A DNA stretch of 64,000 bases from an uncultured Microthrixaceae bacterium (GTDB lineage: Bacteria > Actinomycetota > Acidimicrobiia > Acidimicrobiales > VFJN01). Below the pieces are notes generated by a model. That model searched no databases, was not told the DNA's origin, and saw only the letters and a list, made by a program, of their open reading frames with translations. Both the position numbers and the translations under genes were made by a program. Below, in pieces: positions 5,159 through 55,821 of this stretch; the stretch's first letter is position 1, and every line of letters starts with the position of its first letter. Where the stretch lies: contig CAWCGT010000001.1 in the NCBI GenBank assembly GCA_963795165.1, positions 1,538,048 to 1,602,047 of the forward strand. The letters run 5' to 3'.

Positions 5159-5935
5159 ATGACGTACTCGCTGCCCGACGTGCTCACCGTGGAGGCCGAT
5201 GGTCCCGTGCGGATCATCCGCTTGAACCGCCCTGAGCAGCTCAACGCCACCAACCACGTGCTCCACGGCGCCCTGGCCGAGGTGTGGCCTCAGCTCGACG
5301 CCGACCTCGACGCCCGGGTGGCCGTGCTCACCGGCAACGGCCGGGCCTTCTCCGCTGGCGGCGACTTCGACTACATCGACGAGCTCATCGCCGACGCTGC
5401 CCTCCGCCAGGAGAGCCTCCTCGACGGCAAGAAGATCGTGCAGCGGATGGTGGCCTGCCGAGTGCCGGTGATCGCAGCGGTCAACGGCCCGGCCGTGGGT
5501 CTGGGCTGCAGCCTGGTCGCCCTCTCCGACATCGTCTTCATGGCAGAGAGCGCCCACCTGGCCGACCCTCACGTGCTCATCGGCCTGGTGGCAGCCGATG
5601 GCGGCCCCGTCACCTGGCCGCTGCTCACCAGCCTCCAGCTGGCCAAGGAGTACGCCCTCACCGGCGACCGCATCCCGGCCCGGCGGGCGGCGGAGATCGG
5701 TCTGGTCAACCACGTCTGCCCCGACGGCGAGGTGCTCGACGCAGCGCTGGCGTGCGCCCGCAAGATCGCGGCCCTCCCCCAGCGGGCGGCCGAGGACACC
5801 AAGCGCATCCTCAACATGCAGCTGGAGCGGGCCGTGCTCTCCACCCTCGACTTCGCCCTCACCGCCGAGGACCGCTCCTTCCAGAGCCCCGAGCTGCGCG
5901 CCAACGTCGACCGCCTGCGCCAGCCCAAGGGCTAG
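5159..5935 (+). CDS. enoyl-CoA hydratase/isomerase family protein
   Basis: 258-aa ORF. Crotonase signature GNGRAFSAGGD, VNGPAVGLG. Confidence 0.8.
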   Translation: MTYSLPDVLTVEADGPVRIIRLNRPEQLNATNHVLHGALAEVWPQLDADLDARVAVLTGNGRAFSAGGDFDYIDELIADAALRQESLLDGKKIVQRMVACRVPVIAAVNGPAVGLGCSLVALSDIVFMAESAHLADPHVLIGLVAADGGPVTWPLLTSLQLAKEYALTGDRIPARRAAEIGLVNHVCPDGEVLDAALACARKIAALPQRAAEDTKRILNMQLERAVLSTLDFALTAEDRSFQSPELRANVDRLRQPKG

Positions 5936-6055
5936 GGGTCTCGTCGAGCATCGGTGCTGGGTGACCCAACCGCCCGCACTCGATCCCTCGCCCATCCACC
6001 GCAAGCTGCAACCCCGTCGGCACCGGCTTCGCGCCCGTCCGCATGGCCTCGGCCG

Positions 6056-7252
6056 TCAGCCGTCGGTGCCCGTGGCCTTCGGGTCGTCGAGATGGATGCC
6101 GAGCTGCTGCTCGAGGTGCTGGCGAGTGCCCCTCGCCAGGGGGGCTGGTCGACATCGGAGCTCTCGGCCCCAGGGGCTGACGAAGGTGAGCTCACCGTCG
6201 GCGTGGCCCAGGACGTCCCAGCCGCCCTCGTGGACGAGATGGTGGTGCTCCCAGCAGAGGCCGATCAGGTTCGCCGCGTCGGTGGCGCCGCCGTCGCGCC
6301 AGTGGGCGACGTGGTGGACGTGGCGGATGCGACGGCCGCAGCCGGGGAAGCGGCAGATGCCGGCGTCGCGGTGGTGGATGCGCCGGGCCAGCCAGCGCGG
6401 GATCCGGCGGCTGGTCCGGCCGATCCCGATGGTGGCGCCGTCGGGGCCGTCGACGTGGAACTCGATCTGGCCGTCGCAGAGCAGCCGCAGGATCGAGTCG
6501 CGGGGCAGCTGCATGCCGTTGGGCAGCGCGCCGTTGCCGGCTTCGAGCCCCTCGACCACCTCGCTGTCGATGTGGACGACGACGGCGTGATCGGGGGGCG
6601 GGTGTTCGCCGAGCTGCTGGTCGGCGACGGCGACGAGGGCGTCGGCCTGGCGCTGGTGCTGGGGCGCCCAGAGGCCGGTGGCCGGATCGGGGCCGAGGTC
6701 GGTGGCGGCTTGCGCGATGGCAGCGGACACGACGGCGCCCTGCTCCGGTGGGAGGAACCCGCCGAGGCGCCAGCCATCGCCCGCCCGGGTGGGCCGGATC
6801 GAGAACCGCCGCTTGGCGTGGGCCTCGTTGGCGTCGCGGGCCGCCAGCGGTTGGCGCTCGCGAGCCATGCGCTCGATCTGGGCGGCGGAGAAGGCAGGAA
6901 GCTCGGCGGCGAGCGCTTCGTCGGTGGCGGCCGTGGCGAACCGGGTGGCTTGGCGAACCTGGTCCCACGACAGCTCGCCGCACGCGTGCAGCGCGCGCAG
7001 TGCCGGGAGCTCGTCGAGGGCGGTGGCCACCCGCACCCACTCCGACGCTGTCGCCGCCGACACGTTGAGCGCCATCACCAGCCAGTCGCGCATGGAGAAC
7101 ATGCCGTCGGGCCGCCAGTGCTCAGCCCGGTCGAATGCCACGATCGCCGTGAGCAGCTCGGCATCGGCCGCGCACACGAGCGAGGCCATCTGCTCGATCA
7201 CCCCGGCGATCGCCGGGCCTTCGAACTCGTGGTACTTGTCCGCTGCGGACAT
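6056..7252 (-). CDS. DUF222 / HNH endonuclease domain protein (REP13E12-like family)
   Basis: ATG 7252 (MSAADKYHEF...) within track ORF 6056..7414(-). N-terminal DUF222-like region and C-terminal HNH motif HVHHVAHWRDGG...NLIGLCWEHHHLVH. Flanked by 120-bp and 333-bp non-coding gaps. Confidence 0.75.
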   Translation of the reverse strand: MSAADKYHEFEGPAIAGVIEQMASLVCAADAELLTAIVAFDRAEHWRPDGMFSMRDWLVMALNVSAATASEWVRVATALDELPALRALHACGELSWDQVRQATRFATAATDEALAAELPAFSAAQIERMARERQPLAARDANEAHAKRRFSIRPTRAGDGWRLGGFLPPEQGAVVSAAIAQAATDLGPDPATGLWAPQHQRQADALVAVADQQLGEHPPPDHAVVVHIDSEVVEGLEAGNGALPNGMQLPRDSILRLLCDGQIEFHVDGPDGATIGIGRTSRRIPRWLARRIHHRDAGICRFPGCGRRIRHVHHVAHWRDGGATDAANLIGLCWEHHHLVHEGGWDVLGHADGELTFVSPWGRELRCRPAPLARGTRQHLEQQLGIHLDDPKATGTDG

Positions 7253-7585
7253 CGCCGACCCCACTCGGAACGCGGTCAACCACTGGAAGGGGAGCCATCG
7301 CTCCCGAAGGGGAAGGCCCTCATCGTATCGAACAGACGTTCGCACGTCAACCGCAGTGATCAGATCTCGTCCAGGATCAGGGCCTCCAGCACCCCCTGTC
7401 CCGGGCCGCACCACACCCGTGACCTCCTACCGCCAATCAGCACCTCAGCCGCCCAGACGGGAGCAGGACCACCCGTCCTCAGTGCTGAGGACCTAGGTGA
7501 GCGTCCGCTCCCCCGACCACGGAGCCGTGCAACCCGGCGTGCGAACCCATCCCGATACGGGCTGCGGAGTGGCATTCTGCACGCC

Positions 7586-45249: not shown

Positions 45250-45397
45250 ATGGCTGACCCGGTGGCGGGACTGCGCGAGATGCGGCGGGCCACTCGCCCC
45301 GGTGGGGTGGTGGCAGCGTGCGTGTGGGACCACCATGGTGGCACCAGACGCCTCAGTGCCCGGAGACGCTGCAATCCGCGCCCTTCACGCTGACGGC
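45250..45397 (+). pseudogene. degenerate partial copy of the 42757-43515 methyltransferase gene
   Basis: 45250-45362 aligns to 43081-43192 at about 90% identity (ATGGCTGACCCGGTGGC.GGACTGCGCGAGATGCGGCGGG...GTGGTGGCAGCGTGCGT.TGGGAC). 45381-45397 (CCCTTCACGCTGACGGC) is identical to 43468-43484. The N-terminal third and the middle of the gene are missing. Confidence 0.65.
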
Positions 45398-46032
45398 AAG
45401 CCGGCACGGTCGCCGGGAGGTTCTCTCCCACGGATGTTGAGGAGCGTGGTGCTCAGCGCCACGAAGGTGTCGATGAAGCGCTCGTCGGAGAGCCCGAGCG
45501 GCGGTGCGCCGAAGCTCCAGGTCGAGCGTCGCAGGTTGATGAGGCCGCCGATGAGCAGCACTGCGAGGGCTTCGTTGTCGATGCGTTGGTCGGTGATCGT
45601 GGCGGTCCATCGTTCGATGAGCGACGCCGCGACTCGGTAGCCGCGATCGGACACGCCGGTCCGCATCCGATCGCGTAGTTCGGGGAGTCGGTCTCCTTCT
45701 CGTTCGATGACGTGGGTGATGGTGCGTTCACGGTCGAGTTCCGCGAGCAGCCATCGCATGACTGCCTCGATCTCGGCTGCGGGCTCCGTGAGTGGTGAAG
45801 CGGAGAGGTCGATCTCGACCTCGGCGATCGAGGCGAGGTGTCGCTCCAATCCAGCCTCGAGCACTGCCAGCTTCGAATCGAAGTACTTGTACAGCGCTCC
45901 ACTGCGCGGCGCGAGCCCCGCACCGGCCTCGATGTCGCCGACACTCACCCCAGCGAAGCCGCGCTCGGCGACCAGTTCGAGCGTGGCATCGATGAGCCGA
46001 TCTCGCGTCTGATGCAACCCCGACTTGACCAT
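45385..46032 (-). CDS. TetR/AcrR-family transcriptional regulator
   Basis: ATG 46032 (MVKSGLHQTRDRLIDATLELVAERGFAGVSVGDIEAGAG...) within track ORF 45385..46443(-); 215 aa. GC is visibly lower than in the neighbouring genes. Confidence 0.85.
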   Translation of the reverse strand: MVKSGLHQTRDRLIDATLELVAERGFAGVSVGDIEAGAGLAPRSGALYKYFDSKLAVLEAGLERHLASIAEVEIDLSASPLTEPAAEIEAVMRWLLAELDRERTITHVIEREGDRLPELRDRMRTGVSDRGYRVAASLIERWTATITDQRIDNEALAVLLIGGLINLRRSTWSFGAPPLGLSDERFIDTFVALSTTLLNIRGREPPGDRAGLPSA

Positions 46033-46076: not shown

Positions 46077-46093
46077 GACCGAGGGAGGTGGGG

Positions 46094-46522
46094 ATGGCCA
46101 TGAGCCGTGATGCGGCTACCGATGCGCGAAAGCGACGTCGGGTTCTGGCACTGCAACGATGGATTCTGAACCCGCCGATGAAGCTGCTCGTCTGGCTGGG
46201 TGTCGTGCCCGGCCACGTCGTCATCGAAACGCTCGGCTGCCGGACCGGCAAACGACGGCGCACTGTCGTCGGTGCGCACCGCGACGGCGACACGATCTGG
46301 GTGGTCGCCGAGCAGGGACGACGTGCCGGATGGGTTCGCAATCTCGAGGCTGAACCCGAGGTCCGAGTCCGTCGGCGCGCCCAGTGGCGTGCGGCGAGCG
46401 CGTCGATCATCGACGACGACGATGCCAGTGCACGGATGGGCACATGGCATCGACCGGGACATGCTCGACTCGTCGAGCGATTCGGGACTCAGCTCACAAC
46501 GATCCGGCTCGACGTTCGATAG
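46094..46522 (+). CDS. deazaflavin (F420)-dependent nitroreductase family protein (DDN-like)
   Basis: ATG 46094 with GGGAGG 5 nt upstream (the track starts at GTG 46088). Family pattern ...LGCRTGKRRRTVVG...VVAEQGRRAGWVRNLEAEPEVRV. Confidence 0.7.
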   Translation: MAMSRDAATDARKRRRVLALQRWILNPPMKLLVWLGVVPGHVVIETLGCRTGKRRRTVVGAHRDGDTIWVVAEQGRRAGWVRNLEAEPEVRVRRRAQWRAASASIIDDDDASARMGTWHRPGHARLVERFGTQLTTIRLDVR

Positions 46523-46919: not shown

Positions 46920-47330
46920 TCAGGCCGATCCGAGCGGGTGCTCCTCGAAGTACTCCACGATGCTCGGCATCATCGCCTCGAACCCGCCCGGTGCTCCGAT
47001 GTTCAGAGCGCCGGCCGGTTGGTCGTGCGAGTTCTTGAAGGTGTGGGTCACCCCGCCCGGCACCAGCACAAAGGAGCCCCGCGGGGCCTCGATCCACTCC
47101 TCGTCGACCAGGAAGTCCATGGTCCCCTCGATGACGTAGAAGACGTCGTCCTCGTCGTGCGAGTGGGCGTCGGGCCCGACGGTGTGCGGGTCGAGCCACC
47201 ACTCCGACACGTTGTAGAGGTTGGCTGACTCAGCCCCATCGGCCTTGAACGTGGCGCGCATCCCGCCCATGTCGTAGGCCCGACCTCCCCCAGGAGCCAG
47301 GACCACCGCCCGCCGAGCTGCTCGGTGCAT
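46920..47330 (-). CDS. cupin-domain protein
   Basis: ATG 47330 (MHRAARRAVVLAPGGG...) within track ORF 46920..47396(-). Cupin motifs HSHDEDDVFYVIEG and VLVPGGVTHTF. Confidence 0.7.
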   Translation of the reverse strand: MHRAARRAVVLAPGGGRAYDMGGMRATFKADGAESANLYNVSEWWLDPHTVGPDAHSHDEDDVFYVIEGTMDFLVDEEWIEAPRGSFVLVPGGVTHTFKNSHDQPAGALNIGAPGGFEAMMPSIVEYFEEHPLGSA

Positions 47331-47387: not shown

Positions 47388-47416
47388 CTGCAACACGTTG
47401 ACTGTCTATGTTGCAG
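47388..47416. promoter_or_regulatory. inverted repeat CTGCAACA-N13-TGTTGCAG at the TetR / cupin divergent region
   Basis: Perfect 8-bp arms overlapping the upstream-most start (47408) of the TetR gene. Candidate operator; function not demonstrated. Confidence 0.3.
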
Positions 47417-48034
47417 CGTGGCACAGTGGCGGGGATGAGTGAGGTGCTGGCCTGGCCACAGGCGCAGGGGGTGCTGCCGGAACCACCTGAGGAGGCGGTG
47501 GTGCCGTTCCTGGATGCCGCCTGCCGGGCCATCGGCCGCTTCGGCTGGGCCCGCACCACCATGCGCGACATCGCTCGCGAAGCCGGGGTGGAGCGCACCA
47601 CCGTCTACCGCCACGTGGGGTCCATGTCCGACGTGTACCGGCTGGTGGTGGCGCATGAGCTGCACAAGCTGGTGGCCGCCATCCCGTCGTCGATCCCCGA
47701 GGAGACGGACGGGCCCGGCCTTGTGGTGGAGATGGTGGCGGCCGCCGTGGAGCACTGCCTGGAGCACCCCGTGCTCACCAAGGTCCTCACCGACGAGCCG
47801 GAGCTGATCTCCGGCTTCCTGCTCGACGGCGTCCCGTCGATCATCGAGCGCTTGCGGGAGCTGCTCTCCCCCATGGTGGGCACCGCCATCGACGCCGGCC
47901 TGCTGGCGAGGCGCGACCCGGCCATGGTCACCGAGTGGATCGTGCGGGTGGGCCTCTCGTTGCTGGTGGCCCCGCCGCCGGGCGACCTGCGTGCCTTCCT
48001 CGACGAGATGCTCCGCCCCGCGCTCCAGCCCTGA
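47408..48034 (+). CDS. TetR/AcrR-family transcriptional regulator
   Basis: 208-aa ORF. HTH TTMRDIAREAGVERTTVYRHV. The true start may be ATG 47435 (MSEVLAW...). Confidence 0.8.
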   Translation: MLQRGTVAGMSEVLAWPQAQGVLPEPPEEAVVPFLDAACRAIGRFGWARTTMRDIAREAGVERTTVYRHVGSMSDVYRLVVAHELHKLVAAIPSSIPEETDGPGLVVEMVAAAVEHCLEHPVLTKVLTDEPELISGFLLDGVPSIIERLRELLSPMVGTAIDAGLLARRDPAMVTEWIVRVGLSLLVAPPPGDLRAFLDEMLRPALQP

Positions 48035-48048
48035 CCAGGAGGACCAAC

Positions 48049-48966
48049 ATGACGCTCGACTTGGACAAGATGCTGATCCGGATCCAGGAGCGGCAGTGGG
48101 CGCTCGCCGACTTCGACTGGGAGGCGCCGGGGGCCGAGGCCATCACCGACGAGCAGCGGCCTGACCTGGCCGCGTTCATGATCGACCTGGTGTGGATCGA
48201 GCAGGTGGGGGCCCGAGCCTTTGCCGCGCTGTCCCGCCAAGCCGACGATCCCACCCTGGCCGAGATCTATCGCTGGTTCCACGCCGAGGAGCAGCGCCAC
48301 GCCAACGCCGAGCTGGCCCTGATGCGGCGCTGGGGGATGCTCGAGGGCGACACCCCCGCTCCCAACAACAACATCCGCCTCGTCATCGAGTGGCTGGACC
48401 GCTTCGGCGACGGGCTCCCGATGGGCGTGCTCGGGTCGGTCATCCCGCTCCTGGAGGTGGCCCTCGACGGCGCCCTGCTGAAGTTCCTCCTCGACGAGGT
48501 GCACGACCCGCTGTGCCACGCGGTGTTCGAGAAGATCAACAACGACGAGTCCCGGCACCTCGCCGTGGACTTCCACGTCCTGGGCCTCCTGGGCCAGGAG
48601 GCGTCGGGCGTCGACCTGCGCAGCGTCCTGAAGACGCTGACCAACCCGGGGATCGTTGCGTCGGTCCCCATCGCCCTCCCGCTGTTCACCAAGATGCGGG
48701 AGAACATCGTGAGCATGGGCCTCGACGAGACCCGCCTGCACGCCGCCATCGAGCGCTACGGGCAGCTGGCCGCCCGCAACGGAGACGCCACCCGCAACCC
48801 GGCCTACCGGGTGCTGCGCCGCTACGGCGACCAGATCGTCGAGGACGACAGCTGGCTGGCCAGCCTGGCCGAGATCCTGGTCAGCCTCACCGACCGGATC
48901 CCCAATCGGGCCTTCGGCCCCGTCCCCAGCTGGATCGACAGCCTCACCTACGAGCCGGTGGCGTGA
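48049..48966 (+). CDS. ferritin-like di-iron carboxylate protein (oxygenase/desaturase-like)
   Basis: ATG 48049 with AGGAGG 6 nt upstream; 305 aa. Two ExxH motifs (AEEQRH, NDESRH), each preceded by a helix carrying Glu (WIEQVG, LLEVAL). This is the E...ExxH...E...ExxH ligand set. Confidence 0.7.
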   Translation: MTLDLDKMLIRIQERQWALADFDWEAPGAEAITDEQRPDLAAFMIDLVWIEQVGARAFAALSRQADDPTLAEIYRWFHAEEQRHANAELALMRRWGMLEGDTPAPNNNIRLVIEWLDRFGDGLPMGVLGSVIPLLEVALDGALLKFLLDEVHDPLCHAVFEKINNDESRHLAVDFHVLGLLGQEASGVDLRSVLKTLTNPGIVASVPIALPLFTKMRENIVSMGLDETRLHAAIERYGQLAARNGDATRNPAYRVLRRYGDQIVEDDSWLASLAEILVSLTDRIPNRAFGPVPSWIDSLTYEPVA

Positions 48967-49517
48967 GCTCCCGCGTCGCCACCGGGCCTCGCCCGGTCCT
49001 GCTGCCTCTCGAGCTCGAGGCGTTCGCCGGTCCGGTCCTCCACCTCCAGCGCGCCGACGAAGTCGACGGCCAGGTGGCGGGGCGGCGGATCGGCGTGGTG
49101 GGCGACCCCGTGGGCATCGCAGGGGTGACGCCCGCCCTGGCGGCGAGCGCCGCCTGCCTCAAGGTGTTCCAGACCGATGGGGCCTGGATCCTCCCGCGAC
49201 TGGGCGGTCCGGCGGCACTGACCACCTGGCTGCCCCGGCTCGCCCCCGTGCAGGTCCGGCGTCGGCTGACGAGACGGATCGCTCGCGCTCACCTGCGCGC
49301 CGGCGTGCCCGACGGGTGGACCCGCCGCCAGCTCACCCCATCCCAACCCCCCTCTCGGAGCAACATCGCCTACAGCAGCACCTTCTACCGAGTGCTGCGC
49401 CACCCCCACGTGGAGCTCGTCACCTGGCCGATCGCCCGGGTGGTGGCCGAGGGAGTCCGCACGGCCGACGGCATCGAGCACCACCTCGACGCGCTCGTCG
49501 TCGTAGAGCCGGGATAG
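48963..49517 (+). CDS. truncated flavin-monooxygenase-like protein (only the NAD(P)-binding middle third)
   Basis: GTG 48963 overlaps the upstream stop (GTGA); 184 aa. GRRIGVVGDPVGIAG...LKVFQTDGAWILPR...VELVTWPIARVVAEGVRTADGIEHHLDALVV resembles residues ~170-350 of FMO/BVMO enzymes. No FAD-binding N-terminus or C-terminal domain is present in any frame. Confidence 0.5.
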   Translation: MSSRVATGPRPVLLPLELEAFAGPVLHLQRADEVDGQVAGRRIGVVGDPVGIAGVTPALAASAACLKVFQTDGAWILPRLGGPAALTTWLPRLAPVQVRRRLTRRIARAHLRAGVPDGWTRRQLTPSQPPSRSNIAYSSTFYRVLRHPHVELVTWPIARVVAEGVRTADGIEHHLDALVVVEPG

Positions 49518-49594
49518 CCCACCGGAGGGTTGCCGGCCGTCTTCGTCGGGAAGGCGGGGGCATCGCTCCTCGACTCCCCACCCCCCGCGGCCCC

Positions 49595-50575
49595 GTGTCG
49601 GGCCTCCTTCTCGACGCCGTCCGCCAGCCGCCTCACCGCATCGCCGCGCCGCTCTTCGAGCTCACGAACCCGCTCGTCGACGACGACCTCCACCTCGCGC
49701 TCTACGTCTGCTACGAGCTGCACTACCGGTCGTTCTCGGGGGTGGACGACGGGTGGGAGTGGGCGCCGTCGCTGCTGGCCCTGCGGGCCCGCCTGGAACG
49801 GGCCTTCGAGGCCGCGCTGCGCGAGGAAGCTCCCGACGTCCGAGTGGACGATCACGCCGACGTCGACAGGGCGCTCGTCGACCTGGCCACCGGCGGGGGC
49901 GACGACCGATCGCTGTCGGCCTTCGTGGCCGACCAGGGCACCCTGGAGCAGGTACGAGAGCTGGCGGCGCACCGCTCCGCCTACCAGCTCAAGGAGGCCG
50001 ACCCCCACACGTGGGCCATCCCCCGGCTCCCCAGCGGAACGGCCAAGGCGGCGCTCGTGGACATCCAGGCCGACGAGTACGGCAACGGTGACCCGGCGTC
50101 CATGCACTCGGCGCTCTTCGCCGACACCATGGCGGCACTCGACCTCGACCCCGCCTACGGCGCCTACCTCGACGACCTGCCAGGCCCGACGCTGGCCACG
50201 GTGAACCTGGTCTCCATGCTCGGCCTGCACCGCCGGCTGCGGGGGGCGCTGGTGGGTCACCTGGCCCTGTTCGAGATGACCTCGGTGGCGCCGATGGGTC
50301 GGTATGCGGCCGCCCTGCGCAGGCTGGGACTGGGCGACAAGGCCTGCCGGTTCTACGACGTGCACGTGGAGGCCGACGCCGTCCACGAGGTGGTGGCTCG
50401 GCAGGACATGGCGGTCGCTCTGGCGCAACAGGACCCGGACCTCGGCCCCGACATCGTGTTCGGCGCCCAGGCCGTCACCGCCGTCGAAGGGCGTTTCTCC
50501 CGTCACGCCCTCGACGCGTGGGCCAACGGCCGCAGCTCCCTGCGGAAGCCAGCCCCGCAGGCCGCCACCGCCTGA
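49595..50575 (+). CDS. iron-containing redox enzyme family protein (heme-oxygenase-like di-iron fold)
   Basis: GTG 49595 (start uncertain) within track ORF 49316..50575. DLHLALYVCYELHYRSF...WEWAPSLL...DIQADEYGNG...FEMTS...VHVEADAVHE matches the HO-like/iron-containing redox enzyme family pattern. Confidence 0.65.
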   Translation: MSGLLLDAVRQPPHRIAAPLFELTNPLVDDDLHLALYVCYELHYRSFSGVDDGWEWAPSLLALRARLERAFEAALREEAPDVRVDDHADVDRALVDLATGGGDDRSLSAFVADQGTLEQVRELAAHRSAYQLKEADPHTWAIPRLPSGTAKAALVDIQADEYGNGDPASMHSALFADTMAALDLDPAYGAYLDDLPGPTLATVNLVSMLGLHRRLRGALVGHLALFEMTSVAPMGRYAAALRRLGLGDKACRFYDVHVEADAVHEVVARQDMAVALAQQDPDLGPDIVFGAQAVTAVEGRFSRHALDAWANGRSSLRKPAPQAATA

Positions 50576-50640: not shown

Positions 50641-52983
50641 ATGGAAGACATCCCCGCCGGCCACCTGTTCCTGGGCGAGGCGGTCGATGCCGACCATGAG
50701 CGCACCGGAGATCGCGTCCTGCTGGAGGCAGCCGACCTCACCACCCACGGGGTGATCGTGGGGATGACCGGCTCCGGAAAGACGGGCCTCGGGGTGGCCC
50801 TGATCGAGGAGGCCCTCCTCCAGGGGATCCCGACGCTGATCCTCGATCCCAAGGGCGACCTGGGCAACCTCCTCCTCGCCTTCCCCGACTTGGCCGCCGA
50901 GTCCTTCGCCCCCTGGGTGGAGGGCGACGACGCCGCGGAGGTGGCCGAGCGGTGGCGGGAGGGCCTGGCTGGCTGGGGCATGGACGGCGACCGCATCCAG
51001 GCCCTGCGGGACGCCGCCACCTTCACCATCTACACGCCGGGCTCCACCAGTGGGGTGGGCCTCGACGTGGTGGGCAGCCTGCAGCGCCCGCCCGAGGGCA
51101 CCGATGCCGAGACCACCGCCGATGAGGTGCAGGGGTTCGTGTCCGGGCTGCTCCGCCTGGTGGGGATCGAGGCCGATCCCCTCGCCAGCCGCGAGCACAT
51201 CCTGCTGGCCAACCTGGTGCAGCACGCCTGGGCCGAAGGTCGCGACCTCGATCTCGCCGGCCTGGTGGGTCAGGTGCAGGCGCCGCCGCTGCGAAAGCTC
51301 GGGGTGTTCGAGCTCGACGAGTTCTTCCCGGCCGACGACCGCACCCAGCTGGCACTGCGGCTGAACGGCTTGCTGGCCTCTCCCGCCTTCGCCGCCTGGG
51401 GCGGTGGCCAGCCGCTGGACATCGACGGGCTCCTCACCCCCGGCGGTGAGGACGAGCCGCCCGGCTGCGCCATCGTCTCGCTGGCCCACCTCTCCGACGA
51501 CGAGCGGCAGTTCGTGGTCACCCTGGTGCTGTCGAAGCTGGTCACCTGGATGCGTCGCCAGCCCGGCACCGACCGGCTCCGGGTGCTCGTGTACTTCGAC
51601 GAGGTGGTGGGCTTCGTCCCACCGACGGCCACGCCCCCGGCCAAGGCCCCGATCCTCACCCTGTTGAAGCAAGCACGGGCCTTCGGCGTGGGGCTGGTCC
51701 TGGCCACCCAGAACCCCGTCGACGTGGACTACAAGGCGCTCTCCAACGCCGGAACCTGGATGATCGGTCGGCTGCAGACCGAGCAGGACAAGGCCCGTCT
51801 CCTCGACGGGCTGGCGTCAGTGACCGGCGGGAGCGATCCCGGCACCACCGGGGACACCATCGCCGGGCTGGAGAAGCGGGAGTTCGTGCTGCGCCAGGCG
51901 GGCCAGTCCGACACCACCACCTTCACCAGCCGCTGGGCGATGTCATACCTGCGGGGTCCCCTCACCCGGGACCAGATCGCCACCCTGATGGCCGACCGGG
52001 CTGGCCCTGCGCCCGTGGCGGCCGCCGAGGCGGAGCCGCCGCTGTCGGATGACGCCACCCCCGTCGTCCCGGCCGTGGCCGACGGCATCCCCGTGCGGTG
52101 GGTCGATCCCGCGGCCGCGTGGATCGCGGAGGCGGACGGGGACGCCACCAGCACCACCTACGCGGCCGCGGTGGCCGCCACCGTCGAGCTCCTCTTCGAC
52201 GAGACCAAGGCCGACCTCCGCCACACTGAGACCGTGGAGGGGATCCTGTACCCGCTGGCCCATCCACCCGACCCGGCCTCGCTGGTCCTGGTCGACCACG
52301 ATCCCCGCGACTTCCGAGAGGCGGCGCCCGACGGCGCCGCCTACCGCCTCCCCGACGCCGCCCTCAGCAAGAAGGCCACCTTCACCGCTCTCAAGCGATC
52401 CATCGTGGAGCACCTGTTGGCCAACCGCTCGCTCACCCTGTCCGCCAACCGGGAGCTCAAGCTCTACAGCCGGCCCGGCGAGACGCCTGACGCCTTCGCC
52501 GCGAGGTGCGAGAAGGCTGCCGATGACGGCGCCGACAAGGCGGCTGCGGCCATGGCCAAGAAGATGGCCGGCCGCATCGACCGGGCGCGCAAGGCCGCGG
52601 CCGCCGCCGACGACCGGGTGGGGCAGGCCGAGGAGGCGAAGTCGAGCAAGACGACCGACGAGCTGGTGAGCGGGGCCGGCGACCTGTTGGGCTCGCTGCT
52701 CGGGGGTCGCGGGGGTGCCCGGTCGATCGCCCGCAAGGTCGGCGGTCTGGCTCGGCGCCGGGGCCGGGCCAGCGAGGCGGCCAAGCGGGTGGAGACAGCC
52801 AGCAATCGAGCGGCCGAGAAGGCCCAGGCGGTGGCGGACCTCGAGGCGGACATGGCCGACGAGCTGGCGACCATCGCGGACGAGTGGGACGCCAAGGCCA
52901 TCGCCATCGAGCCCCTCGAGGTTGGGCTGGAGAAGAGCGACGTCCGAGTCGTCGAGCTCAGCCTGGTGTGGCTGCCCGTCTAG
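50641..52983 (+). CDS. HerA/DUF853-like P-loop ATPase with long C-terminal extension
   Basis: ATG 50641; 780 aa. Walker A GMTGSGKTG followed by LILDPKGDL, Walker B VLVYFDEV, then ATQNPVDVDYKALSNAGTWMIGRL. The last ~300 aa are Ala/Lys/Arg-rich predicted coiled coil with no recognised domain. Confidence 0.7.
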   Translation: MEDIPAGHLFLGEAVDADHERTGDRVLLEAADLTTHGVIVGMTGSGKTGLGVALIEEALLQGIPTLILDPKGDLGNLLLAFPDLAAESFAPWVEGDDAAEVAERWREGLAGWGMDGDRIQALRDAATFTIYTPGSTSGVGLDVVGSLQRPPEGTDAETTADEVQGFVSGLLRLVGIEADPLASREHILLANLVQHAWAEGRDLDLAGLVGQVQAPPLRKLGVFELDEFFPADDRTQLALRLNGLLASPAFAAWGGGQPLDIDGLLTPGGEDEPPGCAIVSLAHLSDDERQFVVTLVLSKLVTWMRRQPGTDRLRVLVYFDEVVGFVPPTATPPAKAPILTLLKQARAFGVGLVLATQNPVDVDYKALSNAGTWMIGRLQTEQDKARLLDGLASVTGGSDPGTTGDTIAGLEKREFVLRQAGQSDTTTFTSRWAMSYLRGPLTRDQIATLMADRAGPAPVAAAEAEPPLSDDATPVVPAVADGIPVRWVDPAAAWIAEADGDATSTTYAAAVAATVELLFDETKADLRHTETVEGILYPLAHPPDPASLVLVDHDPRDFREAAPDGAAYRLPDAALSKKATFTALKRSIVEHLLANRSLTLSANRELKLYSRPGETPDAFAARCEKAADDGADKAAAAMAKKMAGRIDRARKAAAAADDRVGQAEEAKSSKTTDELVSGAGDLLGSLLGGRGGARSIARKVGGLARRRGRASEAAKRVETASNRAAEKAQAVADLEADMADELATIADEWDAKAIAIEPLEVGLEKSDVRVVELSLVWLPV

Positions 52984-53028
52984 CGACGGGCAGCCCAGCG
53001 ACCAGGCGAGCGCTGGCGGTCAGCCGCC

Positions 53029-53487
53029 TCAGGCGTCGATGGTGGCGTGCTGCCGACGGCGGATGCCGACGACGAGCACCGCACCAGCGGCCACCAGCAC
53101 GAGTCCGGCCCGCACCAGCGCACCGGTGTTGCTGGAGCCGGTCTGCGGCAGGGCGGCGCCCCGCTCGACGGTCTTCCCACCGACGACCTCGTCGCAGCCG
53201 CTTGCCGTGACGACGTAGTCAGCCGGGTCGGTGCCGTCCGCGATCTCATAGGTCACGGAGTAGGCGCCGTCGCTGCCCACCGTCGTGGTGGCCACCTCTT
53301 CACCACCGAGGGTGACCACGACCGCGCTGCCGACATCACAGCCCGTGCCCTTGGCCGTCACCGAGGACGAGGGCGGAGGGTCGTAGTCGCCGGCTTCGGC
53401 CGGACCCGCCAGCAGGACCAGGGCCGCCAGCCCGGTCGTCAGGAGCACCAAAGCACGCTTCGTTCCTCGAGCCATTGCAACCGCCAT
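53029..53487 (-). CDS. small LPXTG-anchored surface protein
   Basis: Signal peptide (LVLLTTGLAALVLLAGPAEA), a ~100-aa Ig-like/Thr-rich body, sortase signal LPQTGS, a hydrophobic helix and RRRQ. The start is ATG 53487 or 53475 (the track starts at GTG 53496). Confidence 0.7.
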   Translation of the reverse strand: MAVAMARGTKRALVLLTTGLAALVLLAGPAEAGDYDPPPSSSVTAKGTGCDVGSAVVVTLGGEEVATTTVGSDGAYSVTYEIADGTDPADYVVTASGCDEVVGGKTVERGAALPQTGSSNTGALVRAGLVLVAAGAVLVVGIRRRQHATIDA

Positions 53488-53577
53488 CCTTCGCACGTGT
53501 AGAGAGGATCCTGTTCGGCCAGAAAACTAGCCCATACGGGGCATACGTGGCGAGTCGAACTTTCTCCGTGGTCAAAG

Positions 53578-55821
53578 TCACCCCCCGACCACCCGGATCC
53601 GGGGCCGATCGAGGAGGTCCGCGCCACCAGGACCGCGCACGGTGACGTCCACCTCGCTGCGAGTCGCCAGAGGCTGGCGGAGGACCGTCAGCTCGTAGGC
53701 ACCGGCCGGCACGCGACCGGCCAGAGCAACACGGAGGGTGGTGGACTCGCCCCGACGGACCGTGAGGAACGTGAGGTACCGATGGCGCCCCAGCTCCTCC
53801 TGGCGCTCGAGGGCCACCGGCTGGCCGTCGAGCGTCGCCTCCACCACCTCGTGGGGGGTCCACAGCGACACGAGGGTGCGGTTGGTGCCGTCGGGCAGCC
53901 CGTGGATGTTGGTGGCCACGAACGGAGGCAGCCCGGCCGGCGCCTCGTTCGTGTAGGTCGCGGTGACGACGGAGCGCAGGGTCCCGGAGATCTCGTCCAC
54001 CTCCACCTCGTAGCGGATCGTCTCGTCGAGGTACGCGTCGAGCTTGTTCGGGCCGCCGTTGGCCCGAGCCACCGCCAGCGCATCACCCTGTACCGGAGGC
54101 ATCTCACCGGCCAGGCCGAGCTCGCGCAGCAGCGGCTGCGCCACGGGGTCGAGCGTCCAGAACAGCAGGTGCCGGTCGCGGACGACCGGTCCGAGCACGT
54201 CGGCGATCCGAGAGGGACCCGGCATGTCGCCATCGGTGAGGTCGTCGAAGGTGGCATCGGCCGTGGCGTCGAGGAAGTCGATGCGCTCGGTCCGCTCCGG
54301 GAACCGCAGGTACTGCTCCCGAAGGAGGAACGAGGCGGCGTTGTCGGCGTCCAGCGGCTCGTCGAGGTCGGGGACCTCCACCGGCCCGGTGAGCTCCAGC
54401 AGGGCGGCCAGGGCCAGCGGGTCGACGACGAGCACGCCGTCGATGGCATCCCCGGTTGTCTGCCGGTAGAGGTCGGCCACGCCCCGGGCCACGGTGGGCA
54501 GGTCGGGCGAGCTGGTGACGTTCTGCCAGAACGAACCCTGCTGGGCGCGGACGTAGCGCTCCGGGAAGGAGTCCGGATCGGTGAGGCTGGAGCCGACGGC
54601 CAGGGACGCTTCGTTGAGGTCGGCGGCCCGTCCCGTCTCCTCGAGGTCCAGGCGGCCCTCCTCGGCCCGCAGGATGCCCCAGTTGCCGAGGAACCCGCCC
54701 AGCTCGCGCGTCTCGGCCGGGGAGCTGAACACCACGAAGTAGCGACGGGCTTCGCCTTGGCCGAGCAGGCCCGGGAGGACGTCGAGCACGCGATCGGCGA
54801 AGTCGGCGTCGCGACGGGCATCGATCACCCGGGACGCCACGTCGCGAACGTCGTCGGCGATGTTGGGCAGGAGCCACCGGGTCTCCAAGGCAGCCAGGTC
54901 GCCCTCGACGTCGGCCAGGGTGCCCCGCCCGTCGTCGAGGGGAACCTGCAGATCGGCCACCAGGTCGAGGTCGAGCGCGCCGTCGGAGAGCTGCAGGTCC
55001 TTGGGGTCGGCCACATCGAGGATGTCCTGGGCGGCCTCCACCAACCGGAGCCCCGAGTGCATCCCCACCTCGGCCGCCTCCGCGTGGTGGCCCACCACCG
55101 GGACCAGCCGGGCCGGCGCGGTCCACCACCCGTCGAGCCGATCGTCGGCTCGACGGAAGGCATGGGTGGCGCGCTCCAGGTGCGTCGCCGCCTCCTCCTC
55201 GAATCCCGCGGTGGTGGTGCGGCGCCACTCGGCCGCCTCGCCGGTGCCTCGCCCGATGTCGCCCCAAGCCAGCGCCCCGGCCACCACGAAGGGGGCCGCC
55301 GCCAACGCCAACCCGCCCACCAGCACCCCGCCGGCTCGACGAAGGACGGCCCGCGGGCGCTCGGGGGTCATCCGCCAGCCCCGCACGAGAACCGGCAGGC
55401 AGGCGACGACTGCCAGGCCCGTCGTGAGCCGATCCACCGTCAGCGTCGGCAGACGGAACAGGACCTGCACGGCCATGGCGGTGAGCGCCGCGTCGATGGT
55501 GGGCTGCCACCGCCCCTGGATCGGGGGGCGGAGCGCGCCGGCCATGGCGAGCCCCGCCACCGCCGCCCCGGCCCACGACTCCGTCCACACGCAGACGCCC
55601 GCCGCGGCGGCCGCCGGGAGCACCGGCGCGAGCGGGCCGACCCGAGAGGCGGCGACCACCACCGCCACCCCGGCCAGGACCCGCCACACCACATCGGCGG
55701 CATCGACGGCCGACGGGGCCGCGTCGGCCAGGCCGGCACCGATCGCGGTCACAGCCAGCAGCGCCGCCAGTGCCGCTTCGGGGGCGCCCCAGCTCGGGCG
55801 CGGGGCAGAGGTGGGGCCCAT
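53578..55821 (-). CDS. DUF4012-domain membrane protein
   Basis: 747-aa ORF. Multi-TM N-terminus, then DUF4012-like sequence (RYFVVFSSPAETRELGGFLGNWGILRAEEGRL...VVDPLALAALLELTGPV...GPNKLDAYL). Confidence 0.7.
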   Translation of the reverse strand: MGPTSAPRPSWGAPEAALAALLAVTAIGAGLADAAPSAVDAADVVWRVLAGVAVVVAASRVGPLAPVLPAAAAAGVCVWTESWAGAAVAGLAMAGALRPPIQGRWQPTIDAALTAMAVQVLFRLPTLTVDRLTTGLAVVACLPVLVRGWRMTPERPRAVLRRAGGVLVGGLALAAAPFVVAGALAWGDIGRGTGEAAEWRRTTTAGFEEEAATHLERATHAFRRADDRLDGWWTAPARLVPVVGHHAEAAEVGMHSGLRLVEAAQDILDVADPKDLQLSDGALDLDLVADLQVPLDDGRGTLADVEGDLAALETRWLLPNIADDVRDVASRVIDARRDADFADRVLDVLPGLLGQGEARRYFVVFSSPAETRELGGFLGNWGILRAEEGRLDLEETGRAADLNEASLAVGSSLTDPDSFPERYVRAQQGSFWQNVTSSPDLPTVARGVADLYRQTTGDAIDGVLVVDPLALAALLELTGPVEVPDLDEPLDADNAASFLLREQYLRFPERTERIDFLDATADATFDDLTDGDMPGPSRIADVLGPVVRDRHLLFWTLDPVAQPLLRELGLAGEMPPVQGDALAVARANGGPNKLDAYLDETIRYEVEVDEISGTLRSVVTATYTNEAPAGLPPFVATNIHGLPDGTNRTLVSLWTPHEVVEATLDGQPVALERQEELGRHRYLTFLTVRRGESTTLRVALAGRVPAGAYELTVLRQPLATRSEVDVTVRGPGGADLLDRPRIRVVGG

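Follow-up and report, generated by a model that had tools for sequence, protein, structure and literature searches.

A conserved tetR-ferritin-like gene unit carrying a putative non-catalytic partner derived from the NADP domain of Baeyer-Villiger monooxygenases

We analyzed a window of 64,000 nucleotides from an uncultured Microthrixaceae bacterium (GenBank assembly GCA_963795165.1, contig CAWCGT010000001.1, positions 1,538,048 to 1,602,047 of the forward strand; G+C about 72% throughout), in which a conserved unit is made up of a tetR gene, a gene for a ferritin-like di-metal carboxylate protein (FDO) and a small open reading frame (ORF) encoding 184 residues. The composition of this unit is assigned with high confidence. 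Our favoured reading, to which we give a probability of roughly 0.6, is that these genes and the operator in front of them (47388-49517) constitute an operon autorepressed by TetR, that the small protein is a non-catalytic partner of FDO, and that the heme-oxygenase-like diiron enzyme (HDO) encoded next to it is a chance neighbour. Within this reading, the assignment of the small protein as FDO partner is of moderate confidence and the specific chemistry of the unit of low confidence. Six ORFs are relevant, namely a minus-strand cupin gene followed by those for TetR, FDO, the 184-residue protein, the PF14518 protein HDO and a HerA-like ATPase, and the closest relatives of the genes under study come from Acidimicrobiales metagenome-assembled genomes. 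The initial annotation had joined a palindrome and the TetR, ferritin-like, 184-residue and HDO ORFs, all of which are present where it placed them, into one operon with two di-iron enzymes and the remnant of a flavoenzyme.

The pairing of FDO with its downstream partner was evident from a survey of 166 loci encoding FDO, 152 of which could be evaluated for the downstream gene. All-against-all clustering of stop-to-stop ORFs from the 166 loci was dropped, as overlapping-frame ORFs in high-GC DNA made the groups too lumpy, and neighbour genes were counted by targeted tblastn. A homologue of Baeyer-Villiger monooxygenases (BVMOs) lay directly 3' of the FDO gene on the same strand in 151 of the 152 evaluable loci, being full-length in 142 and restricted to the NADP domain in nine; another 14 FDO loci had no partner match, mostly with the contig ending soon after the FDO gene. 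The first possible start of the partner overlapped the FDO stop codon or lay within 30 nt of it in 154 of 156 loci, with ATGA or GTGA overlaps in 63, and the FDO-BVMO pair was confirmed in at least 567 stretches of species-representative genomes. Full-length partners exceed the short forms by about 135 N-terminal and about 158 C-terminal residues and carry the FAD-binding GxGxxG, the BVMO fingerprint and the NADPH-binding GxGxxA, with a match to phenylacetone monooxygenase (PAMO) at E=1e-74; by these features the full-length protein qualifies as a true type I BVMO.

In most bacteria the partner is full-length, and the pair is then usually embedded in a cassette of the order esterase-SDR-FDO-BVMO-MerR, SDR denoting a short-chain dehydrogenase/reductase. 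Counted over 80 loci of species-representative genomes, the SDR gene was directly 5' of the FDO gene in 71, an alpha/beta hydrolase gene 5' of the SDR gene in 53, and a MerR regulator gene downstream in 64. Annotated full cassettes are carried by plasmids of Mycolicibacterium chubuense NBB4 (NC_018022), M. aubagnense (NZ_AP022578) and Tsukamurella tyrosinosolvens (NZ_LR134464). On NC_018022 (locus L170, 8134-17136) the cassette is surrounded by genes for a second and a third FAD oxidoreductase, an alpha/beta hydrolase, a P450 and fatty-acid-CoA ligases, neighbours which point to the oxidation of an aliphatic substrate. SDR, BVMO and esterase are the classic set by which a secondary alcohol is oxidised via a ketone and an ester, and the cassette looks like such a route from secondary alcohol through ketone and ester to acid. 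Neither the ferritin-like/BVMO cassette nor any BVMO derivative consisting of the NADP domain alone was found described in the open-access literature searched. Public records call the homologues 'hypothetical protein', 'ferritin-like domain-containing protein', 'reductase' or 'CzcO', and a look-up of the clusters supplied no names.

The window belongs to the short-partner type. A metagenome scan with a single FDO protein recovered only Mycobacterium-type loci, 54-57% identical, and the close relatives L081, L082 and L167-L169, which lay outside its results, were retrieved individually. In these relatives the unit consists of TetR (206-213 residues, miscalled as 170 in L167), FDO (306-309 residues) and the small protein (172-190 residues), their genes being joined by 4-bp overlaps; the small gene of L167 is cut by the contig end. 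A homologous tetR gene stands directly 5' of the FDO gene, mostly with a 4-bp overlap, in L081, L082, L083, L167, L168, L169 and L175, and the short-partner loci L001, L003, L004, L081, L082, L168 and L169 have no SDR, hydrolase or MerR gene. All short forms whose context could be inspected (window, L001, L003, L004, L081-L083, L127, L167-L169 and L175) are encoded directly 3' of an FDO gene. The co-occurrence anticipated for the cluster thus held for tetR, the FDO gene and the small ORF; HDO, which the initial annotation had counted as a member, is not co-conserved with them.

The 184-residue protein (48963-49517, plus strand) starts at the GTG of a GTGA overlap with the FDO gene and aligns to cyclohexanone and phenylacetone monooxygenases (CHMO/PAMO, PDB) over residues ~158-221 and ~304-378, in agreement with its earlier description as derived from a flavin monooxygenase (FMO). 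Its start corresponds to about residue 140-160 of full-length BVMOs, and the N-terminal FAD-binding Rossmann domain with GxGxxG is absent. The BVMO fingerprint FxGxxxHxxxW[P/D] reads FAGPVLHLQRAD in the window, with F, G, H and D kept and W replaced by A, and across the small-protein family only F21 and G23 of it are invariant. The dinucleotide motif is G47-D-P-V-G-I (GDPVGI) in place of GxGxx[G/A], and the 2'-phosphate site is FQTD in place of FQRT; G-D/E-P occupies the GxGxxG position in 20 of 28 aligned family members. Canonical NADPH binding by the small protein of the window clade is unlikely because of the G-D/E-P motif and the FQTD-like change, and lacking the FAD domain and these motifs, the protein cannot, as read from its sequence, be a monooxygenase.

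The small protein nevertheless departs from the 'remnant' of the initial annotation in belonging to a conserved family whose boundaries are fixed and whose fold is predicted with confidence. The family comprises 28 clusters at 90% identity (27 besides the window) of 164-252 residues, all delimited alike, from just before the fingerprint F-x-G to just after D-x-I-V-x-A, directly before the ATG linker of the full-length enzymes. Eighteen columns are invariant in the 28 clusters, including W119/R121/P126 (DxWxRRQLTP), W155-P156 and G164/R166/T167/G170/H173 (GxRTADGxEH), and orthologues only 36-54% identical keep the frame, start and end points. A profile search of 1.84 billion representatives gave 76 matches below 1e-30, many of which, also among the best 150 listed, have 160-250 residues; about 40 short clusters exist at 50% identity, and about 42 of 45 short representatives at this level have M or V as their first residue and stop right behind the D.IV.A motif. 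No Pfam model recognises the 184-residue protein. Its AlphaFold2 (AF2) model, made like that of FDO as a single protein, reached a pLDDT of 90.4 from 28 sequences, and the top 50 Foldseek matches in the PDB were all BVMOs, aligned over the NADP domain, with E down to 4.8e-12 and TMq of 0.64-0.70. By these features the 184-residue ORF is a real member of a conserved family and neither debris nor a decaying remnant.

FDO (48049-48966, plus strand; 305 residues) is preceded by an AGGAGG ribosome-binding site and carries tandem E...ExxH ligand motifs. The ligands are E51 (codon at 48199), E81 (48289), H84 (48298), E136 (48454), E167 (48547) and H170 (48556), with E81-x-x-H84 in HAEEQRH and E167-x-x-H170 in NDESRH; the E...ExxH spacings are 30 and 31 residues, and the ligands sit on predicted helices 37-64, 68-94, 125-150 and 154-185. 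With their codons verified and all six invariant in the family alignment, the di-iron motifs first noted in the sequence are intact. FDO has at least 1620 homologues, mostly of about 306 residues, in Mycobacterium, Mycolicibacterium, Nocardia, Williamsia, Gordonia, Marmoricola, Jatrophihabitans and Acidimicrobiales, with a few in Proteobacteria and Acidobacteria. Its AF2 model is all-helical (pLDDT 75) and gave weak Foldseek matches to R2-like ligand-binding oxidase and the R2 subunit of class I ribonucleotide reductase (RNR) (best E=1.7e-3, TM 0.45-0.59); PDB sequence and profile searches with FDO found no significant relative.

Of the profiles proposed at the outset, PF14518 is passed by HDO and AurF (PF11583) stays below cut-off for FDO. 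FDO passes no Pfam or NCBIfam cut-off and has no NCBIfam match at all; its sub-threshold Pfam matches are Rubrerythrin (20.2 bits against a cut-off of 22.8), AurF (best E=5e-4) and FA_desaturase_2. An extra core-helix-4 His is a feature of the AurF/CmlI N-oxygenases (PMC7848743). This residue was not found in FDO, where I163, N164, N165 and D166 precede E167, the position four before E167 is Ile, and the nearest His to E167 is H157, ten residues upstream. FDO was considered as an AurF-type N-oxygenase since some members weakly match PF11583, and the assignment was rejected on the scores below cut-off and the missing His. We place FDO in an uncharacterised branch of the ferritin-like di-metal superfamily.

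The TetR-family repressor gene (47435-48034, plus strand) encodes 199 residues from ATG 47435, in an ORF open from ATG 47408. Its product carries the TetR_N helix-turn-helix (PF00440, E=1.9e-11; 44 bits against a cut-off of 24) and matches named TetR regulators only weakly in NCBIfam. Upstream of the gene, inside its promoter, lies the palindrome CTGCAACA (47388-47395)-N13-TGTTGCAG (47409-47416), read directly, with an exact palindrome match at 47389-47415. The initial annotation had listed this operator with the genes downstream of tetR; the element itself holds up and is conserved, and only its position has to be revised. Its core TGCAACA-N13-TGTTGCA encloses a TTGACT -35-like hexamer (47398-47403), and a -10-like CACAGT follows at 47422-47427, 18 nt past the -35. 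A strict consensus scan predicted no promoter here, and the two hexamers are a reading by eye that rests on conservation across loci. As 0.88 matches with up to two mismatches are expected by chance in the window, the significance of the palindrome comes from its retention at the equivalent position in seven orthologous loci and not from window statistics: TGCAAC(A)-N13/14-(T)GTTGCA with an internal TTGAC stands upstream of tetR in L081, L082, L083, L167, L168, L169 and L175, where a CTnnAT-like hexamer (CACAGT in the window) lies 18 nt past TTGAC and the start codon about 7 nt further. Comparison of these loci supports TetR and its putative operator as real. The tetR transcript is probably leaderless, with the ATG 7 nt beyond the -10-like hexamer, and the palindrome would then be an operator overlapping the -35 and spacer of this promoter.

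Taken as a mechanism, our favoured reading would have TetR bind the palindrome around the -35 box of its own promoter, whose transcript is probably leaderless, until a small, probably hydrophobic, ligand frees it. An ancestral cassette would have been cut down in the Acidimicrobiales lineage to FDO and the NADP domain of the BVMO, with destruction of the glycine motif. Because it is reduced to this domain and its dinucleotide glycine motif is destroyed, the 184-residue protein would have no flavin chemistry left and would serve as a docking, stabilising or effector subunit of FDO. Translational coupling would ensure that it is made in step with FDO in stoichiometric amounts, and O2 activation in the unit would fall to FDO alone. 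Gene content, the conservation of ligands and operator, the identity of the domain and the co-occurrence counts are shown by the sequences; repression, the leaderless start, a physical interaction between FDO and its partner, and a lipid or ketone-like substrate are the parts of this scheme that we infer. Going further, FDO and BVMO may form a previously unrecognised two-protein system in which FDO docks on the NADP domain, this domain having been kept alone as a pseudoenzyme subunit after flavin chemistry was lost, in Acidimicrobiales and independently elsewhere; we put this forward tentatively, as a possibility well short of even odds.

Among the alternatives, the one that survives best would make the small protein a nucleotide-binding module that binds NAD(P)H non-canonically and, as redox sensor or docking site, links a reductant to the metal site of FDO in the manner of a reductase. 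Ferritin-like oxygenases depend on a supply of electrons for which the unit has no gene, the partner in loci of the full type is an NADPH-dependent flavoenzyme, the Rossmann beta-alpha-beta core is predicted intact, and some family members keep GxGxxA and FQRTP. In the window clade, however, the second glycine has become proline and the 2'-phosphate-binding R-T has become T-D or similar, and the protein has neither a flavin domain nor another redox cofactor site for electron transfer. This explanation is therefore unlikely, though it keeps more weight than those considered below.

HDO (49562-50575, plus strand; about 330 residues) scores 193.2 bits against PF14518 (cut-off 28.9) over profile positions 1-175 of 177 and matches HrmI, SznF and RohS in the PDB, which bears out its annotation as a heme-oxygenase-like iron enzyme. 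In SznF, E215, H311, D315 and H318 are ligands, and Glu189, a seventh ligand on auxiliary helix 2, is a tentative N-oxygenase marker (PMC7848743). Seven HDO residues with verified codons (E 49994, E 50075, H 50105, E 50273, H 50363, D 50375 and H 50384) align, pairwise and through the profile, to SznF E189/E215/H225/E281/H311/D315/H318. The remaining SznF ligands among these are presumably H225 and E281, as numbered here. All seven positions are invariant among 25 family members, and the Glu of YQLKEADPHTW in HDO aligns with SznF Glu189 in both alignments. Because its ligands align with those of SznF and are invariant, HDO is probably active and, judged by the Glu189 marker, tentatively N-oxygenase-like. 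Alignment thus leaves no metal ligand missing in either FDO or HDO.

The HDO family has a near-invariant LPxPRGP motif at the N-terminus, and in the window the in-frame codons for it precede GTG 49595, the start given in the public annotation (region 49517-49610). No ATG, GTG or TTG lies between the stop at 49517 and this motif, and an ATC at 49562 has GGGAAGG 7 nt upstream. This ATC may be the real start; otherwise HDO would be N-terminally shortened in this genome.

Two di-iron enzymes in one operon had been taken to suggest a short oxidative pathway, and a three-enzyme version of this would have FDO and HDO act in turn on one small molecule under TetR control, with the flavoenzyme piece as dead weight. 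It fits that both di-iron sites are intact, that the four genes from tetR to the HDO gene are co-directional and closely spaced, a consensus scan predicting no terminator, and that in L169 a gene for a PhyH-family dioxygenase overlaps the stop of the small gene by 4 bp, so that extra oxygenases can be appended. HDO homologues were found, however, in none of the 166 FDO loci, nor did any follow the small gene in its nearest relatives (L001, L081, L082, L168 and L169); in these the gene that comes next is missing, lies on the opposite strand, is AhpC-like or encodes a PhyH dioxygenase. The HDO family is very large (at least 8000 candidates), and the neighbours of its members vary over the five loci compared: a 70-75-residue protein and a type IB topoisomerase (Top1B) in L084 and L086, a 334-residue protein and an FMO in L085, ABC-transporter genes in L173 and pyruvate kinase in L174. 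The 184-residue piece is, moreover, better conserved than a remnant would be. We consider the pathway improbable. The absence from the 166 FDO loci and the varied contexts of its homologues place HDO outside the conserved unit, and we hold with high confidence, from these gene neighbourhoods, that it is a separate, widespread stand-alone gene and a chance neighbour.

Beside these HDO homologues, a conserved acidic protein of 70-75 residues with no Pfam match is encoded ahead of the HDO homologue with a 4-bp overlap in the Acidimicrobiales contigs L084 (5792-8108) and L086 (5777-8117), and the type IB topoisomerase gene follows; no homologue of this protein was found in the window by tblastn. 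A TetR-DUF455-188-residue operon next to the HDO homologue of L086 was considered as a distant version of the unit and rejected for want of homology to the window genes. The L169 dioxygenase (5918-7278) is an Fe(II)/2-oxoglutarate enzyme, and its attachment to the NADP-domain gene implies that different oxygenases have been appended to the unit in different genomes.

The history of the short partner was traced in a neighbour-joining tree of FDOs, in which the Acidimicrobiales short-partner loci cluster together and L127 nests within the clade of full-length partners. The short partner of L127 is 50-55% identical to full-length partners, as against 34-41% to the Acidimicrobiales short forms. 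To lose the FAD domain, a gene must undergo a deletion at either end, and this excision therefore seems to have occurred on two or more occasions; the L127 truncation is, on this comparison, apparently independent of that in Acidimicrobiales. In gene order L127 (161-2500) has the FDO gene, an NADP-domain-only partner gene (ATGA overlap; GTSANA motif) and then a MerR gene, and appears to stand midway from the full cassette to the form found in Acidimicrobiales.

Nei-Gojobori dN/dS was 0.39-0.80 for the small gene, 0.21-0.41 for the FDO gene and 0.23-0.55 for tetR, the high values of the small gene being inflated by a dS of about 0.6-1.3 that is near saturation and compressed by GC3 bias. The ratio for the small gene was below 1 in 15 of 15 pairs, which gives weak support to its maintenance; the retained frame, common boundaries and invariant motifs at 36-54% identity are, as sequence evidence, stronger. 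That the 184-residue ORF is a functionless leftover of a deleted BVMO, open only since stops are rare at 72% G+C, is the least probable of the alternatives, for the loss of the FAD domain and all catalytic motifs, a dN/dS above that of neighbouring genes and the lack of a recognising Pfam model are outweighed by diverged orthologues that keep frame, boundaries and 18 invariant residues, a confident fold prediction from 28 sequences, about 40 diverged clusters, the arrival of at least two lineages at the same domain boundaries and the maintained translational coupling.

Several observations weigh against the autorepressed operon with a non-catalytic FDO partner. FDO scores below the threshold of every curated family, its structural matches are weak (E~2e-3, TM 0.45-0.59), and it could be a Mn/Fe protein or a non-oxygenase. 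The putative FDO-partner complex is proposed from gene arrangement, and the structure models cover single proteins. Some family members retain GxGxxA and FQRTP, so that binding of NADPH may be relevant to a fraction of the family, which weakens a purely structural interpretation of the small protein. The dN/dS of the small gene is high within the limits given above, and L127 is a single metagenome contig of 3.4 kb. HDO follows the small gene on the same strand at a distance of 45-78 nt with no predicted terminator, and co-transcription or read-through into HDO is possible in this organism.

Around the unit, a gene for a Cupin_2 protein (46920-47330, minus strand; PF07883, E=2.6e-14) diverges from the TetR promoter region, its start lying about 60 nt from the operator. 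No cupin homologue was found at any related locus; specific to the window, the gene may share the operator and be co-regulated here. Further upstream, a second tetR gene (~45385-46029, minus strand) diverges from a gene for an F420H2-dependent quinone reductase-like protein (46088-46522, plus strand; PF04075, E=8e-19), and the two look like a separate small regulated redox pair. Downstream of HDO and on its strand, an 821-residue ORF with a likely start near 50641 encodes a HerA/DUF87-like ATPase, followed on the minus strand by genes for an LPXTG-anchored protein (53029-53496) and a DUF4012 protein (53578-55821); these genes (50641-55821) appear unrelated to the unit.

If our favoured reading is correct, di-iron and flavin O2 chemistry would be functionally linked, and in Mycobacteriales and related groups this link would probably serve the oxidation of lipids, ketones or alkanes. 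The BVMO, reduced more than once, would then give a clear example from nature of how a domain of an enzyme is turned into a partner with no catalytic role, and the retained NADP domain would mark the BVMO surface needed by the di-iron protein. For annotation, adjacency in a single genome, as with HDO, can mislead, and short 'CzcO-like/hypothetical' ORFs of this kind are real genes and not pseudogene debris.

Among known systems, the type I BVMOs (PAMO, CHMO, OTEMO and steroid monooxygenase, and the EthA/MymA-like enzymes of Mycobacteriales) are those to whose NADP(H)-binding domain the 184-residue protein is homologous and like which it is predicted to fold; it differs from them in having no FAD domain (about 135 N-terminal and 158 C-terminal residues fewer), in the lost fingerprint Trp and in GDPVGI for GxGxxG. 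FDO resembles R2-like ligand-binding oxidase (R2lox), RNR R2, AurF/CmlI and the acyl-ACP desaturases in its two E...ExxH motifs and all-helical model, but passes no curated model of the ferritin-like di-metal families and lacks the extra core-helix-4 His of AurF/CmlI. To our knowledge, no obligate BVMO-type neighbour is known for the R2lox, R2, AurF/CmlI or desaturase families, and none was found for ferritin-like di-metal families in the open-access literature. HDO has PF14518 in common with SznF, RohS and HrmI/BelK, together with the canonical set of six ligands and the additional Glu of auxiliary helix 2; unlike these proteins it stands alone, with variable neighbours and no biosynthetic cluster around it, and unlike SznF it has no cupin domain.

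Regulation and partnership each have a parallel as well. In Mycobacterium tuberculosis the TetR repressor EthR controls the BVMO EthA through a palindromic operator, and the unit likewise brings together a TetR-family gene, a palindromic operator and a BVMO-family gene; its genes are co-directional and overlapping rather than divergent, however, the BVMO is reduced to one domain, and FDO is the main cargo. NrdI with NrdF, and MmoB with the methane monooxygenase hydroxylase, are accessory proteins of di-metal enzymes. The unit may be analogous to these in encoding a small partner beside a ferritin-like di-metal protein, and NrdI-R2 complexes are among the fold matches of FDO; the 184-residue protein differs from NrdI and MmoB in having no sequence or fold relation to either, and its interaction with FDO is putative.

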